Positions 1 through 7,417 of a DNA stretch of 7,417 nucleotides are shown piece by piece. Numbering within the stretch: the first letter of the stretch is position 1; every line of letters starts with the position of its first letter. Under the pieces are notes generated by a model. That model was given only the letters and a program-made list of their open reading frames with translations. It was not told the origin of the DNA and searched no databases. A program made the translations under genes and the position numbers. Source of the stretch: a virus (Duplodnaviria > Heunggongvirae > Uroviricota > Caudoviricetes); the IMG/VR virus record IMGVR_UViG_2537562019_000013, one strand, 5' to 3'.

Positions 1-76
1 TCTGGCGGATGGTGTCCTGTTGCGTCTGCAACAGTGCCCGCAGGCGGGCATTCTCATGAGCAAGTGAGGTGTCCAT
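1..76 (-). CDS. IS66-family transposase TnpC (Orf3), N-terminal 25 codons only; continues beyond window start
   Basis: Reverse complement of 1..76 opens with ATG (76..74) and translates MDTSLAHENARLRALLQTQQDTIRQ, a heptad-like leucine-rich N-terminus typical of IS66 TnpC. It starts 20 bp after the TnpB stop, the usual IS66 tnpB-tnpC spacing. Not in the ORF track because it is truncated by the window edge. Confidence 0.55.
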   Translation of the reverse strand, partial: MDTSLAHENARLRALLQTQQDTIRQ

Positions 77-95
77 ATCCTCACTTTACAACGGG

Positions 96-443
96 TTATA
101 TGCGGATTCCAGCGCGTTCCGTTCGTTTCGGGTGCTTCCAGTTGATACCTTCAAGAAGCATGGATAACTGAGCCGGAGTAAGGTGAACCTTTCCATCGCG
201 GGTGACCGGCCAGACGAAGCGGCCCCGCTCCAGGCGTTTGGTGAAGAGGCACAGTCCGTCACTGTCAGCCCACAGCACTTTTATCTGGTCACCCCGGCGT
301 CCGCGGAAGATGAACAGATGCCCGGAGAACGGGTCATCCTTCAGGACGTTCTGAACTTTTGAGGCCAGGCCGTTAAAGCCATTTCGCATATCGGTGATAC
401 CGGCAACCAGCCAGATACGCGAACCGGCAGGGAGAGATATCAT
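96..443 (-). CDS. tnpB: IS66-family Orf2 / TnpB accessory protein (115 aa)
   Basis: The 115-aa translation (MISLPAGSRIWLVAGITDMRNGFNGLASKV...LFIFRGRRGDQIKVLWADSDGLCLFTKRLERGRF) has the size and conserved motifs of IS66 Orf2. Its start overlaps the upstream ORF's stop in an ATGA arrangement at 443, suggesting translational coupling. Confidence 0.85.
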   Translation of the reverse strand: MISLPAGSRIWLVAGITDMRNGFNGLASKVQNVLKDDPFSGHLFIFRGRRGDQIKVLWADSDGLCLFTKRLERGRFVWPVTRDGKVHLTPAQLSMLLEGINWKHPKRTERAGIRI

Positions 444-1093
444 CAGTGGCTGCTCCCTTTCATTTCGCGGATAAGTGTCTGTAATAACGCCGGTGTCAGT
501 TCACCTTTCAGCCTGAGAGTTCCGGCCGGCAGAACCAGCTCACAGCACAGACTGTCGGGCGGTGTATTTATCTGTTCAGGTATCTGCACTGGTGCCGGGA
601 TTTTATTATCCGGCTCCGGAGTTAACGTCACGGGAAGTAGCGATGTTTCATGTTCGCCGGTCGGCTGCAGGCCGCCGTTACGCCAGAGATGCCGCCAGTT
701 AAAGAGCAGGTTATCGTTGATTCCGTTCTCACGAGCTATTTGTGCGACACAGGCACCGGGTAAAAGAGTTTGCTGAACAAGCCTCCATTTAAACTCCGGT
801 GAAAATCGGTTCCGGCGGATTTTCTCTGTTTTCACAGGCTGAGTCACTGTCGGGGCTGAAGGATATCGCCCAGGGAAAAGAGCCCGGGCCAGTTGCACGC
901 AGGAATATTCTCCGGAAAGAGGCCAGTCAGTGAATACCTGGTGAAATCGCCTCACCAGAGAAAAAATGGCGGTTTTGCTGATACCGGTCTGCGCAGAAAT
1001 GCGCGGGTACGACAGTGACTCGTCAAATCTCAGCTGTAGCACACGCAGGATCAATTCCGGATTGTCTGCCAGTACCGCTTTTCGTGCATTCAT
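443..1093 (-). CDS. IS66-family Orf1 / TnpA-like protein with an N-terminal HTH-like extension (216 aa as drawn; an alternative GTG start at 835 would give about 131 aa)
   Basis: The C-terminal about 130 aa (KIRRNRFSPEFKWRLVQQTLLPGACVAQIARENGINDNLLFNWRHLW...) resembles the IS66 TnpA HTH/leucine-zipper protein. The N-terminal about 86 aa (..SYPRISAQTGISKTAIFSLVRRF..) looks like a second helix-turn-helix. ATG at 1093..1091 is preceded by AAGGGA. Gene order TnpA-TnpB-TnpC on one strand is the IS66 family arrangement. Confidence 0.7.
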   Translation of the reverse strand: MNARKAVLADNPELILRVLQLRFDESLSYPRISAQTGISKTAIFSLVRRFHQVFTDWPLSGEYSCVQLARALFPGRYPSAPTVTQPVKTEKIRRNRFSPEFKWRLVQQTLLPGACVAQIARENGINDNLLFNWRHLWRNGGLQPTGEHETSLLPVTLTPEPDNKIPAPVQIPEQINTPPDSLCCELVLPAGTLRLKGELTPALLQTLIREMKGSSH

Positions 1094-1190
1094 CTTAAAT
1101 GTCCCTTTACTGCGAAAATGGACATTAGTATCGGAAACAGGAAAGGGAGGCGAAAGACGGTTTAAATGAGACGGTTACCCATAAACGATA

Positions 1191-1210
1191 AAACCGCCCG
1201 GAGGCGGTTT
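1191..1210 (-). terminator. Perfect 8-bp stem hairpin (AAACCGCC-CGGA-GGCGGTTT) immediately downstream of gene I; possible intrinsic terminator or attenuator
   Basis: Seen directly: 1191-1198 aaaccgcc, loop cgga, 1203-1210 ggcggttt. On the minus strand it is followed by TTTTATCGTTTAT, a T-rich but interrupted tract. It lies 19 bp after the I stop codon. Confidence 0.35.
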
Positions 1211-1228
1211 CACATAAAACATTTTGCA

Positions 1229-1898
1229 TCAGCGACCAATCACCACAACCTGACCACCATCCCCTTCGTCTGCCGTGCTGATCTCCTGAGAAACCACGCG
1301 TGACCCCACGCGCATTTCACCGTACAGAACCGGCAGAACATTACCCTGGGCAACCATGTTATCCAGGGAGGAGAAATAGGTGTTCTGTTTGCCGTTATCC
1401 GTTGTCTGTGTACGGGGAGTTCTGGCTTTCGGTGCCAGCATCTGCGCCACACCACCGAGCACCATACTGGCACCGAGAGAAAACAGGATGCCGGTCATAC
1501 CACCGGTCCCAATGGCTGCCCCCCATGCTGCAAGGGTGGCTCCGGCGGTAAAGAATGATCCGGCAATGGCGGCAGCCCCCAGGACAATCTGGAATACGCC
1601 ACCTGACTTGGCCCCGGCGACTCTGGGAACAATATGAATCACAGCGCCATCAGGCAGAGTCTCATGTAACTGCGCCGTTAACCCGGACGTGCTGACGTCC
1701 CGCCCGGCAATCCGTACCTGATACCAGCCGTCGCTCAGTTTCTGACGAAACGCCGGAGCTGTGTGGCCAGTGCCCGATGGCTTCAGCCCCCGTTTTCACA
1801 CGAAGGTCGATGCGGCGGCCAAATCGTTGTAAATCCCCGTAAAGGCAGATGCGCGCCATGCCCGGTGACGCCAGAGGGAGTGTGTGCGTCGCTGCCAT
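1229..1898 (-). pseudogene. I: Lambda-like tail tip assembly protein I, split into two frames (N-terminal ORF 1662..1898, C-terminal ORF 1229..1642)
   Basis: The 78-aa ORF starts MAATHTLPLASPGMARICLYGDLQRFGRRIDLRVKTGAEAI, then becomes unrelated sequence. The other frame carries the rest of the protein (..FRQKLSDGWYQVRIAGRDVSTSGLTAQLHETLPDGAVIHIVPRVAGAKSGGVF...VVVIGR). The frames cannot be joined without adding 2 nt between about 1752 and 1778. ATG at 1898 has a GAGAGG RBS and overlaps the K 3' end by about 100 bp, as in lambda. Confidence 0.65.
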
Positions 1899-2539
1899 TT
1901 GTCGGTATACCTCTCTCGTTTGCTCAGTTGTTCAGGAATATGGTGCAGCAGCTCGCCGTCACCACAGTAAATGGCGGCATGATTCGGCACCGATGAACCA
2001 AAACAGCACAGCAGCACATCGCCCGGCTGCGCCGCTGACAACGGCACCTGATACAGCCCTGTGGCCTCCAGATTATCCAGATAGAGATTCTGACCGTTAC
2101 GCCACCAGTCATCCTCGCGATGAAAATCCGGCATCTCAATCCCCGCCAGATGGTAAGCATCCCGGAACAGCGTGTAACAGTCCGTCACCCCGTGCTCAAA
2201 GCGCCGCCCGGAAAGATGTGGCACACAGCGGAACTTGTGAATCGCCCCCCGGCAAACCAGCCACCACGGCAAATCACTCTGCACCTGCAGCCGCCGGTCG
2301 GCCTCACTCAGCCAGGGCAGACCACCGGGGTGGCTGTGGACCAGCGCCACAATCTCACCCTGCATTTCTGCCTGCAGCCAGTCCTCCGGCGACATCCGGA
2401 AATACTCCTCCGGCTCACCGGAGATATTCACGCAGGGAAAATATCTTTCCCCCTCCGGCGTGCTTACCACGAAGCCGCACGACTCCGCTGGCGCACATCG
2501 CCGGGCGTGCGCCAGAATCGCTGATTCTGTCTGTGTCAT
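1796..2539 (-). CDS. K: Lambda-like tail tip assembly protein K (247 aa), MPN/JAMM plus NlpC/P60 domains
   Basis: The translation has a JAMM-type motif (VHSHPGGLPWLSEAD: H-x-H-x7-S-x2-D) and a downstream Cys/His region consistent with NlpC/P60 (..GVTDCYTLF.., ..NHAAIY..). The start ATG at 2539 lies 5 bp after the L stop. Position between L and I matches the lambdoid tail-tip order. Confidence 0.85.
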   Translation of the reverse strand: MTQTESAILAHARRCAPAESCGFVVSTPEGERYFPCVNISGEPEEYFRMSPEDWLQAEMQGEIVALVHSHPGGLPWLSEADRRLQVQSDLPWWLVCRGAIHKFRCVPHLSGRRFEHGVTDCYTLFRDAYHLAGIEMPDFHREDDWWRNGQNLYLDNLEATGLYQVPLSAAQPGDVLLCCFGSSVPNHAAIYCGDGELLHHIPEQLSKRERYTDKWQRRTHSLWRHRAWRASAFTGIYNDLAAASTFV

Positions 2540-2544
2540 GGGAT

Positions 2545-3243
2545 TTACTGCGAAAGTTTGTTAATGGAAAGGAAGCCGCCAAAGTTGCCGACGTTATTGC
2601 GGAACTTACAGCCACTCAGGCATTTGCTGCATTTATCCTTCGTGATATCGGACGTTGTCTGGTCATATTCATCCGCGACCGCCGGACCGTGATAACCGCA
2701 CTCATCGCCGCGATAGGTCCAGGTGCAGGTGTTGGCCAGCATGATACGTCCCGGAAAAACAGCGCCATCTGTTTCCGTCGGCGTGGACAGTACAAAGGAG
2801 GCACTCACCGCGCTCAGTTCGCTGCACTGCTCGATGCGCCAGCGGCTGATCACCTCCTGCTCCGGATCGGCGTCACTGTTTCCGTTAACGAAGTTCACCG
2901 CATCCAGAAAACGGGCGTAAACCTTACGCCGGACCACCGTTCCGCCGACCAGACTCTGCAGATCTTCCGCCATCCCGGTGACCATACCGTACAGGTTAGA
3001 AACCGTCAGCGTGGGGCGCGTACTGGTGCCTTTGCCATTCAGTTCAAAACCACTCCCCTGAATGGGATACGGCTGATACTGTCGCCCCTGCCAGGTGACC
3101 GGCTCACCTTTTTCGTTCTGCTCATTACAGAAAAAATAACGTTCTCCACCGACCTCTGTCAGGTCGATTTCCCAGAGCACCACGCTGGCCGACTGCTCCG
3201 CACGGGTGCATTCATTCAGTGTTTCCTGCCGGATATCCTGCAT
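2545..3243 (-). CDS. L: Lambda-like tail tip assembly protein L (232 aa)
   Basis: 232 aa, the same length as lambda gpL, with a C-terminal cysteine cluster (C-x8-C ... C-x2-C-x3-C) consistent with the Fe-S site reported for gpL. Its ATG overlaps the M stop in an ATGA arrangement at 3243. Confidence 0.85.
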   Translation of the reverse strand: MQDIRQETLNECTRAEQSASVVLWEIDLTEVGGERYFFCNEQNEKGEPVTWQGRQYQPYPIQGSGFELNGKGTSTRPTLTVSNLYGMVTGMAEDLQSLVGGTVVRRKVYARFLDAVNFVNGNSDADPEQEVISRWRIEQCSELSAVSASFVLSTPTETDGAVFPGRIMLANTCTWTYRGDECGYHGPAVADEYDQTTSDITKDKCSKCLSGCKFRNNVGNFGGFLSINKLSQ

Positions 3244-3572
3244 CAGTTCACCACCTGTTCAAACTCTGCGCTGAACTCAACACGCAACATACTGACCCGC
3301 GACGACCATTTTGCGCAGGTCACCTTTATCTGCCGCCACTCATAAGGCGGCGTCCACAGAAAGGCTTTCCAGCCCCCGTGCTCTTCCAGAAACGACTCCA
3401 GTACCGTGGCCTCCTCACGGGGGACAGAAAGCGTCACGCTGTACGTTTTCAGGTTGGCATTCAGCCCGGCAGGCGCTCGCTGAGAATAGCCATCACCAAA
3501 GCGCACCTTTCTTACAGAAGGGACCGAAGCCACATCCATACCGGGTTTCACTTTCCAGCGGAAGGTCTTCAT
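3243..3572 (-). CDS. M: Lambda-like tail tip assembly protein M (109 aa)
   Basis: 109 aa, the same length as lambda gpM, in the conserved H-M-L position. Its start overlaps the stop of the H C-terminal frame in an ATGA arrangement at 3572..3569. Confidence 0.85.
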   Translation of the reverse strand: MKTFRWKVKPGMDVASVPSVRKVRFGDGYSQRAPAGLNANLKTYSVTLSVPREEATVLESFLEEHGGWKAFLWTPPYEWRQIKVTCAKWSSRVSMLRVEFSAEFEQVVN

Positions 3573-6147
3573 CGTCCACCTCCGGAGAACAGGCCACCAT
3601 CACGCATCTGTGTCTGAATTTCATCACGGGCACCCTTGCGGGCCATGTCATACACCGCCTTCAGAGCAGCCGGACCTGGCAGACCATTCGTACCGTCGTT
3701 CTGAATCACCACGTGATTGTTCTGATTAAAATTAATGCCTTCAGCCCGCCGCATCTGCGCCGGACTTCCCGGCACCGCACATAACCACCTTCCGCATAGC
3801 CCCGCATCAGGCGGTACAGGTTGCCGACACCAATCCGGCTGGTTGCCTCCTTCGTGAAGACAAACTCACCACGGTGAACAATCCCCGCTGGCTCATATTT
3901 GCCGCCGGTTCCCGTAAATCCTCCGGTTGCAAAATGGAATTTCGCCGCAGCGGCCTGAATGGCTGTACCGCCTGACGCGGATGCTCCACCACTGGCAGCA
4001 CCGCCAATGGCGCTGCCGATACTCCCGACAATCCCCACCATTGCCTGCTTAAGCAGAATTTCTGTCATCATGGACAGCACGGAACGGGTGAAGCTGCGCC
4101 AGTTCTGCTCACTGCCGATCAGCATCGCCGCCATATTCTGTGCAATACCATCAAAGGTCTGCGTGGCTGCACTTTTTACCTGCGACATACTGTCCGTGGC
4201 GCTCTCTTCCCACTCACTCCAGCCGGACTTCAGGCCTGCCATCCAGCTCCCGCGAAGCTGGTCTTCAGCCGCCCAGGTCTTTTTCTGCTCTGACATGACG
4301 TTATTCAGCGCCAGCGGATTATCGCCATACTGTTCCTTCAGGCGCTGTTCCGTGGCTTCCCGTTCTGCCTGCCGGTCAGTCAGCCCCCGGCTTTTCGCAT
4401 CAATGGCGGCCCGTTTTGCCCGTTGCTGCTGTGCGAATTTATCCGCCTGCTGCGCCAGCGCGTTCAGGCGCTCCTGATACGTAACCTTGTCGCCAAGTGC
4501 AGCCAGCTGGCGTTTGTACTCCAGCGTCTCATCTTTATGCGCCAGCAGGGATTTCTCCTGTGCAGACAGCTGGCGACGTTGCGCCGCCTCCTCCAGTACC
4601 GCGAACTGACTCTCCGCCTTCCACAAATCCCGGCGCTGCTGGCTGATTTTCTCATTCGCTCCGGCATGCTTCTCCAGCGTCCGGAGTTCTGCCTGAAGCG
4701 TCAGCAGGGCAGCATGAGCACTGTCTTCCTGACGATCGCCCGCAGACACCTTCACGCCGGACTGTTTCGGCTTTTTCAGCGTCGCTTCATAATCCTTTTT
4801 CGCCGCCGCCATCAGCGTGTTGTAATCCGCCTGCAGGATTTTCCCGTCTTTCAGTGCCTTGTTCAGTTCTTCCTGACGGGCGGTATATTTCTCCAGCGGC
4901 GTCTGCAGCCGTTCGTAAGCCTTCTGCGCCTCTTCGGTATATTTCAGCCGTGATGCCTCAGACTCGGCCCAGTCCTTTGCTGCCATCTCTCTGGCCTTTT
5001 CAAGATCGGCCTGCAACGTGGCGGCTGAAAGCCCAAGTTGCGCATTCGCTCTGTCCTCCCATGCTCCCCGGAGATTGGCAAGAAATGCTGAGGTTTTACC
5101 GCGCCGGTGGCTCCGGCTCTGATACCACTGCCATTTTTTGTCCGCCTCATCAAAAGCCTTTTCTGCTTTCTCCAGCATTCCCTGGGCAGTGTCCGGGCGA
5201 CCAATATCCAGCACCGAATCCCACATGGATTTGAATGCCCGTGCTGTCCTGTCTGCCCAGGTCTCCAGCGTGCCCATGTTCTCTTTCAGGCGGCGGGTCT
5301 GGTCATCAAACCCTTTCGTTGCGGCTTCGTTCGCCGCCTGCAATGCCCCGGCTTCATCGCCGGAACGCTGCAACTGAGCAACATACGCAATCTGCTCCGC
5401 CGTCACGTTATGGAACTGACGCGCCATCGCCGTCAGCCCCGACGTCGGGTCTGTGGTCAGCTTCCCGAAGGCTTCAGCGACCTTGTCCACCTCCACGCCG
5501 GATGCAGAGGAGAAACGCGCCACACTCTGGCTGATCGCCTCAAACTGCTCACCACCACGCACACCGGCATTCACCAGCGCCGTCAGTGACTCGCTGGTCT
5601 GGTTAAACGTCAGCCCTGCCGCCTGCCCGGCTCTGGACAGGACCAGCATACGATCTGCCGTCAGACCCGACTGATGACCGGAAAGGACCAGCGTTTTGTT
5701 GAAATCGGACAGGGTTGAGTTGCCCTGATACCAGGCATACGCCAGCGCACCGGTCGCCACCGCCAGCGAGGTGGCCCCCACCATCGGCAGGGTGATCGCA
5801 CCGGCAAGCCCCCTGAACATGGGGATCATCCCGCCGAAGGAGTCCTTAACCTGACCCCCCTGTTGCAGCAGGATCAGCCACGGACTTTGCCCGCCTGCAA
5901 GCTGCGTGGCCACGTCGGTGAACTGTGCAGGCAGCATACGCATGGCGGCTTTATACTGCCCGACGGAAATCCCCGCTTTCTGTGCAGCCAGCGCCTGTCG
6001 GCTCAGCGACTGTTCAACGACTGCCGCTGTTTTTTTCGCATCACTTTCCGTACCGGAAAAATGACGCCTGACTCTGGCCATCTGCTCGTCAAATCTGGCC
6101 GCATCCAGACTCAAATCAACGACCAGATCGCCTACCGGTTCAGCCAT
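3569..6147 (-). CDS. H: Lambda-like tail tape measure protein H, frame-disrupted near the 3' end (main ORF 3706..6147, 813 aa; C-terminal 67 codons in another frame at 3569..3775)
   Basis: The N-terminus (MAEPVGDLVVDLSLDAARFDEQMARVRRHF..), long coiled-coil middle and glycine-rich segment are typical of a tape measure protein. After ..LMRGYAEGGYV the main frame becomes an aberrant 30-aa tail (RCREVRRRCGGLKALILIRTITW*). The true C-terminus (..NFNQNNHVVIQNDGTNGLPGPAALKAVYDMARKGARDEIQTQMRDGGLFSGGGR) is in a frame offset by 1 nt and ends exactly at the M start. Confidence 0.8.
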
Positions 6148-6978
6148 ACCGGACTCCTCCTGCGATCCCTTCTGATACTGTCATCAGCATTACGTCATCC
6201 TCCGTCATGTCCGCCACATCCGGGGAAGCGGGGATAACTTCATTCCCGTCCGGGCCAAAGCGGACGCCTCCGGCAAGCCCTGCCGCTTTCTGCATCAGCA
6301 CATCATCTTCAGGCTCTTCGTCAGCCTCACGCCGGTTCAGCAGACTGAAATCCAGCGGATGCATATCCGGATCGCTGAAAAACAGGCTGAGTACGGTGTA
6401 CGTCAGCCCGGAAAAGTGCATATCCAGCAGAACATCATGAAAATAATGGGTACTGTAAAAGCGGTGCCAGTCGGCATACTCCGTGGATGACATCCCGGCA
6501 AGCATGGCACGCCAGTCGGGTCGCCCCATCTCTCGCGCCAGTTTCAGGGCAAAACTCAGCTCACCATCGAACACTTTCCCGCAGAAACAGGCTCTGCAGG
6601 CCCGGCGTCCTCTGTCTGTTCAGGAGCATCATTCACCACAAACTCATACATACCGGACAGCCGGTACACCACGTTTTCAGCATGAGAAATTGCCTCCGTG
6701 GGCCAGGTGGTAAGCACTTCCTGCTCAATCTGTTTAACGGCTTCATTCATGGAAGGCAGCTTTGTCTTCTTCGGATGGTTATGCCACAGGGACATCGCCA
6801 CCAGAAACGCGCCGGTTCTGATGGCGTCTTCCACAGTAAACTTCCGGTTGCTGTCTGACTCCGCCTGTTCTGCCTGCCGTTTCATCAGGGCGAGATGCTC
6901 AATACGCTGCAGGGCTGACAGTTCAGAAAGCGTGACGGTCACACCGTTATGTTCAAATGATTCGGTTTTCAGGAACAT
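6140..6978 (-). CDS. T: Tail assembly chaperone G-T fusion made by programmed -1 ribosomal frameshift (T portion at 6140..6574)
   Basis: The -1 frame after the slippery site reads K-VFDGELSFALKLAREMGRPDWRAMLAGMSS.., which is the T ORF in the track. That ORF has no proper start of its own; its leading M is a GTG inside G. It overlaps the H start by 8 nt. This is the conserved G/GT arrangement of lambdoid and many other tailed phages. Confidence 0.8.
6556..6978 (-). CDS. G: Lambda-like tail assembly chaperone G (140 aa)
   Basis: 140 aa, ending ..PVSAGKCSMVS, with the slippery heptamer G GGA AAG in frame near its 3' end. ATG at 6978 is preceded by a GGAGA RBS, 15 bp after the V stop. Confidence 0.85.
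   Translation of the reverse strand: MFLKTESFEHNGVTVTLSELSALQRIEHLALMKRQAEQAESDSNRKFTVEDAIRTGAFLVAMSLWHNHPKKTKLPSMNEAVKQIEQEVLTTWPTEAISHAENVVYRLSGMYEFVVNDAPEQTEDAGPAEPVSAGKCSMVS
6574..6580 (-). promoter_or_regulatory. Programmed -1 frameshift slippery heptamer G GGA AAG (G-T recoding site)
   Basis: Plus-strand ctttccc at 6574-6580 is GGGAAAG on the minus strand, with GGA and AAG as in-frame codons of G (..A-G-K-C..). A -1 slip enters the T frame. Confidence 0.8.
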
Positions 6979-6993
6979 CGCTGACTCTCCGGA

Positions 6994-7417
6994 TTAACTG
7001 GCGGTGACGTTGATTTCTGCAACCGCAGCAAGTTCACCATTACCGGATACGACCGGAATGTTGACCTTGCCTGCAGCAACACCTTTCACGGTGATGGTCA
7101 TACCACTGACCGACACGGTGGCTTTTGTTTTATCCGCTGACACCGCACGGAAGCTCTTGTCGGTTGCGCCTTCCGGCTGGAATGCCACGGTCAGCGTGGT
7201 GCTCTTCCCTTTCACTACGGAAGCGCTGGCTGGCGTCACGGTCATACCGGTTGCCGCTGTTACCGTGCTGCGATCTTCTGCCATCGACGGACGTCCCACG
7301 TTGGTGACTTTCACCGTGCGGGTGATCACTTCCTTCGCCGTCACCGCCTTACCGATACTGCTGACCCAGCCGCGGAACACATCGACCGTGCCGTTCGGGA
7401 AGCGGATTTTATAGGCA
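6994..7417 (-). CDS. V: Lambda-like major tail protein V, C-terminal part including the Ig-like domain; 5' end lies beyond the window
   Basis: The frame is open from the window edge (..[83 protein letters not shown]...NVTAS*). The T/V/S-rich C-terminus looks like the Big_2-type Ig-like domain of gpV. The M at 7380 in the track is an internal GTG. Stop TAA at 6996..6994. Confidence 0.8.

Follow-up and report, generated by a model that had tools for sequence, protein, structure and literature searches.

Members of the IS66 family generate 8-bp duplications of their target and are bounded by inverted repeats of 20-35 bp (PMC6778807; PMC3281130 Table 2). The closest described elements are those of the IS679/ISCro1 group, which occurs in E. 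coli pB171, on ETEC plasmids, and in Citrobacter rodentium. Like the members of this group, the element described here is 2,704 bp long, has tnpA, tnpB, and tnpC all pointing the same way, ends in imperfect terminal repeats of the GTAA type, and duplicates 8 bp of its target; there is no structural difference, with 1,178 bp of the element lying in the sequence that we analyzed. The IS679/ISCro1 label comes only from the NCBI product names of near-identical copies ("IS679 family", "ISCro1 family"). The 2,704-bp IS is common on ETEC plasmids and chromosomes, and an ETEC plasmid carries a copy with 100% identity to the one at the corresponding site in the chromosome of the O114:H49 strain 90-9280 (CP024240, locus L001).

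On the phage side, the model is the I-J region of phage lambda (NC_001416, 15445-15504), a 60-nt spacer that contains a hairpin equivalent to ours at the equivalent place. The spacer is uninterrupted in lambda, whereas here it is interrupted by the IS. Cryptic lambdoid prophages disrupted by IS elements are found in pathogenic E. coli, and our locus resembles them in having an IS in the late region. It differs from them in that the target was an intergenic spacer and every neighboring ORF was left intact by the insertion.

The window, that is, the whole stretch of 7,417 bp that was analyzed, is an entire draft contig (APXB01000377.1, assembly GCA_000356365.2) that terminates within the IS. All its long family-supported ORFs are on the minus strand. 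The tail genes follow the lambda-type order V-G-T-H-M-L-K-I; H, M, L, K, and I have Pfam family matches, whereas the assignment of V, G, and T relies on the gene calls of the contig. The features are as follows.

7417..6994, minus strand: 3' part of V (gene call)
6147..3569, minus strand: tape-measure gene H (PF06791, PF09718)
3572..3243, minus strand: M (PF05939)
3243..2545, minus strand: L (PF05100)
2539..1796, minus strand: tail gene K, with JAB/MPN and NlpC/P60 peptidase domains, intact (PF14464, PF00877)
1799..1229, minus strand: tail assembly gene I, frameshifted, with its stop codon at 1231..1229 (PF06805 on the upstream, 5' fragment; aligned with the intact gene of L001, which encodes 190 aa)
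1213..1188, minus strand: I-J intergenic hairpin, native to lambdoid phages and outside the IS, with the core stem AAACCGCC/GGCGGTTT at 1210..1191
1179..1186, minus strand: 8-bp target-site duplication, copy next to I, reading GTTTATGG (minus strand) or CCATAAAC (plus strand)
1..1178, minus strand: tnpA-proximal 1,178 bp of the 2,704-bp IS66-family element, cut by the contig end; many full-length copies of 2,704 bp match it at 98.6-99.4% identity
1154..1178, minus strand: IRL, the tnpA-side terminal inverted repeat GTAACCGTCTCATTTAAACCGTCTT, which matches the far-end repeat GTAAGCGACTCGTCAGAACCGTATT of L001 at 18 of 25 positions
1093..443, minus strand: tnpA, IS66-like accessory protein of 216 aa (PF01527 HTH_Tnp_1, E 6e-16; NF038385 IS66_access_TnpA, 285 bits with a cut-off of 150)
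443..96, minus strand: tnpB, IS66 Orf2-type accessory protein of 115 aa (PF05717 TnpB_IS66, E 5e-40; NF033819, 129 bits)
76..1, minus strand: first 25 codons of tnpC (DDE transposase), up to the contig end, with the translation MDTSLAHENARLRALLQTQQDTIRQ, collinear with the 523-aa tnpC of L001

Two features of the tail module were seen outside the junction. At the end of G (6556-6580, minus strand), GGGAAAG corresponds to the slippery sequence of the programmed -1 frameshift between G and T in lambda, and the T frame follows, as judged from the sequence and the gene calls only. Inside H, about 220 bp (4954-5172) gave no megablast alignment to the close relative, and the identity to that relative was 97.4% for 5173-7417 versus 99.1% for 1-4953. 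This pattern suggests that the tape-measure gene is mosaic or contains a recombined patch.

Our analysis confirmed an IS insertion in the I-J spacer with an exact junction at position 1178. Read on the minus strand, the element starts with GTAACCGTCTCATTTAAACC (GTAACCG...), and the match of the window to most other copies of the IS, hundreds of them, ends at this same base. The traits of the IS66 family that are present include tnpA and tnpB in the window, GTAA-type imperfect terminal repeats, the 8-bp duplication, and a length of ~2.7 kb. For tnpC, the window holds 25 codons, and the full DDE transposase is seen in relatives: the 523-aa protein of L001 matches NF033517 (479 bits), and the copies in L002-L011 carry PF13007, PF13005, PF03050, and PF13817. 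At 443, the ATG of tnpB and the stop codon of tnpA overlap, and all three genes are co-oriented with the tail genes. An earlier note, made from the letters of the sequence, had described an IS66-type element that begins with GTAACCG and carries tnpA-tnpB-tnpC in the tail orientation. The boundary at 1178 and the Pfam and NCBIfam matches bear out this description; in the ORFs at 1..1093, the matches of tnpA and tnpB to IS66 accessory proteins lie above the curated thresholds.

The search for the far side of the element in complete genomes revealed a 100% match to the 140-bp I-side junction in each of three complete ETEC chromosomes, CP024240, CP023349 (ETEC-2264), and LR882978. Such identity in three complete genomes means that the junction is not a chance pattern. 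The J-side junction was present in the same three only, among 5,426 complete E. coli genomes. The earlier note had stated that J was missing or separated from the late operon, and it had proposed to look beyond the IS for a matching inverted repeat, an 8-bp duplication, and an intact J ORF. The repeat and the duplication were found in each of these three chromosomes. In L001, the IS is 2,704 bp long with GTTTATGG at both ends, and J resumes 18 bp past it as an ORF of 1,132 aa, equal in length to lambda J and 97% identical to it over the first 65 residues, which were the residues compared. The GGAG-N8-ATG start of J is kept, because the duplicated GG is the first half of its Shine-Dalgarno site. 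Separation is therefore correct, with 2,704 bp of IS between I and J, but loss is not, given a full-length J in the three relatives. J is separated from I and is still present in these genomes.

We deleted the IS in silico, together with one of the two 8-bp copies. The resulting 600 bp was 100% identical to many uninterrupted E. coli I-J regions (4,210 genomes have an uninterrupted I-J region at a coverage of at least 80%), and the reconstructed empty site was 98-99.5% identical to lambda-type phages. This agreement with uninterrupted prophages therefore argues for simple transposition, with no loss of DNA. The best explanation is one transposition of an IS66-family element, 2,704 bp long and of the IS679/ISCro1 type, into the 60-nt I-J spacer. 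The point of entry would be 9 nt past the I-J hairpin that belongs to the phage, with the IS co-oriented with the late operon and the 8-bp target GTTTATGG duplicated in a simple insertion without deletion. J, with its own GGAG site partly rebuilt through the duplication, would lie 18 bp past the far IS end, so that the J-side junction under simple insertion would read far IS end-GTTTATGG-AGCATGACGA-ATG(J). We give this single insertion into the spacer, taken whole, a probability of about 0.88, and we infer that the genome of the window has the identical J-side junction. The insertion is lineage-specific, occurring in those three complete genomes and in this draft.

The draft contig shows other lesions. 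Compared with the intact genes of CP024240, gene I of the window has two 1-nt deletions (at ~1755 and ~1775, within the region 1740-1790) and H has a +1/-2 indel pair (~3770-3780, within the region 3660-3790), so that each gene is frameshifted. These indels are clustered and lie at short homopolymers; they may equally be errors of the draft assembly or genuine pseudogenisation. Within the window, the IS portion was 99.4% identical (7 mismatches) to a plasmid copy of ETEC-2264 (L022) and 98.6% identical to L001, the chromosomal copy at the corresponding site, with 16 mismatches that fall mostly in tnpB. Since it is closer to the plasmid copy than to the same-site chromosomal copy, the simplest explanations are that it may be a collapsed consensus of several copies or a product of gene conversion; that the IS inserted independently at the very same base is less likely.

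The clustered indels and the resemblance of the IS part to a consensus of several copies are also what would be expected if the junction were an assembly chimera of the draft contig. However, three independent complete genomes contain the identical junction; a chimera is thus hardly credible, and we rejected it.

Another reading is that the IS marks the end-point of a deletion or rearrangement in the window's own genome, where J would be absent or elsewhere. The contig ends in the IS and the window shows nothing beyond, and this IS does rearrange DNA at other places, with swapped flanks at L002/L003 and mismatched flanks at L004, L022, and L023. Nevertheless, in each of the three complete genomes that share the 140-bp junction, the insertion is simple, with a duplication and an intact J, and a contig break at a multi-copy IS is the usual outcome of short-read sequencing, which makes such a rearrangement improbable. 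Short-read contigs normally break at multi-copy IS elements, and under the simple insertion the window would end inside the IS because this multi-copy repeat broke the short-read assembly.

The earlier note had also suggested that the intergenic hairpin was relevant to the choice of target by IS66. It had placed the hairpin 19 bp after the I stop and the IS about 13 bp further, distances that are correct within a few bases: the hairpin begins 15-18 nt past the stop codon of I and the IS end is 9-12 nt beyond the hairpin. This stem-loop at 1213..1188 is strong (-19 kcal/mol, z -3.1), and none of 200 shuffled sequences folded equally well. A scan for consensus terminators did not call it, and it is terminator-like by eye only. 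Alignment with lambda, which the note had proposed for fixing the junction, showed that the flank 1179-1275 corresponds to lambda base for base except for four substitutions, in the loop and at three nearby bases; the loop is TCCG in the window and TGCG in lambda. The target GTTTATGG corresponds to lambda ATTTATGG, and it thus adjoins lambda's own hairpin and lies directly before the Shine-Dalgarno site of J.

We surveyed 19 copies of the same IS in eight further genomes; a look-up with the TnpA of the window had yielded ten other copies in a single genome, and the survey drew on these. All of them were exactly 2,704 bp long; 13 had perfect 8-bp duplications and six had unmatched flanks. The duplications lean toward AT (mean of 3 G+C in 8) and have no consensus. 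Many of the target sites are intragenic, including hns, yhaV, psiA, an IS4 transposase, and the phage genes G (tail) and FI. In the reconstructed empty sites of the 13 other clean insertions, folding revealed no strong stem-loop at or beside the target (z -1.6 to +0.8).

These results bear on the possibility that the intergenic hairpin directed the IS to this site through structure-specific target choice. The insertion is 9 nt from a strong hairpin, which is what such targeting would predict, but the hairpin is lambda's own, the insertion occurs in only three of the ~4,200 genomes that have this spacer, and the 13 other clean sites have neither a common stem-loop nor a motif. The absence of a shared hairpin or consensus at these sites therefore gives no support to structure-directed targeting, which we consider very unlikely and rejected on a small sample, and the suggestion that the hairpin guided the element did not hold.

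The survey yielded other observations on this IS. In GCA_040813075.1, which has at least 10 copies, the insertions L002 and L003, at ~4.36 and ~4.60 Mb, have exchanged their 8-bp flanks reciprocally (GTCTTTAT and CATTAATC), a pattern that indicates an IS-mediated inversion of ~240 kb. In the same genome, the IS is also present in other lambdoid prophages, where it lies in the first codons of the tail chaperone gene G and, as another copy, ~11 codons into FI (L005 and L006, both 9916-12619); these coding sequences are truly disrupted. Among 185,579 species-representative genomes, the exact 23-nt IS end had one match, in contig NODE_59 of Thauera sp. 2A1 (L015). This contig of 3 kb, with a coverage of 1.7, shows 97.8% identity to the IS of E. 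coli; it is probably contamination and was left out of the target analysis.

It was predicted in the earlier note that the insertion would uncouple J and leave the prophage tail-defective. A strongly polar IS, or one that blocks J in some other way, would indeed result in no tails. The IS moves J 2.7 kb away from I and puts three foreign ORFs in front of it, and a weak terminator-like site lies at the far IS end on the strand of the tail genes (L001 7495..7480). On the other hand, J has its own GGAG-N8-ATG and was never coupled to I in translation, because lambda itself has the 60-nt spacer with the same hairpin between the two genes. A sequence scan of the IS found no promoter-like sites, and its terminator-like sites were not above chance when compared with shuffled sequences (4 observed vs. 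2.6 +/- 1.6). Lambda-type late transcription is antiterminated by Q and resists terminators, and the relative CP024240 has a Q homologue, quuD, upstream. The prophage seems in any case to be disabled by other lesions, namely the truncated integrase in the relative and the frameshifts of H and I in the window. A block of J is therefore doubtful.

Under a simple insertion, late Q-antiterminated transcription would read through the IS, and J expression would be reduced at most rather than abolished; this argument is based on general lambda Q antitermination and not on this prophage. In CP024240, the prophage occupies the DLP12 position and adjoins appY and ompT (L014 1-1600 corresponds to CP024240 4432000-4433600), and its integrase is truncated beside IS100. 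With a truncated integrase, excision is probably impossible whatever the IS66 element does. The prophage in this lineage thus looks cryptic for reasons other than IS66.

In the leader of the IS (1094-1178, minus strand), UCCCUUU is predicted to pair with the tnpA Shine-Dalgarno sequence AAGGGA (-20 kcal/mol, z -2.4). IS10 and IS50 are elements that block their expression from read-through transcripts. Speculatively, the leader modeled here might shield tnpA from translation on such transcripts. It is conceivable, although a long shot, that induction drives Q-antiterminated read-through of tnpA-tnpB-tnpC and causes a burst of IS66 transposition, or that the leader pairing blocks exactly that. 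If true, either outcome, transposition coupled to induction or a block by the leader, would be new information on the regulation of IS66.

The kind of event is already known: a well-known IS has moved into the spacer of a prophage by ordinary transposition. Beyond annotation it has little importance; it documents a lineage-specific IS in an ETEC prophage, explains why the contig ends where it does, and corrects the idea that J was lost. The junction could be used to mark the lineage of O114:H49-type ETEC. Were the IS polar on J, it would represent one more route of prophage domestication, of a kind that is already well documented.
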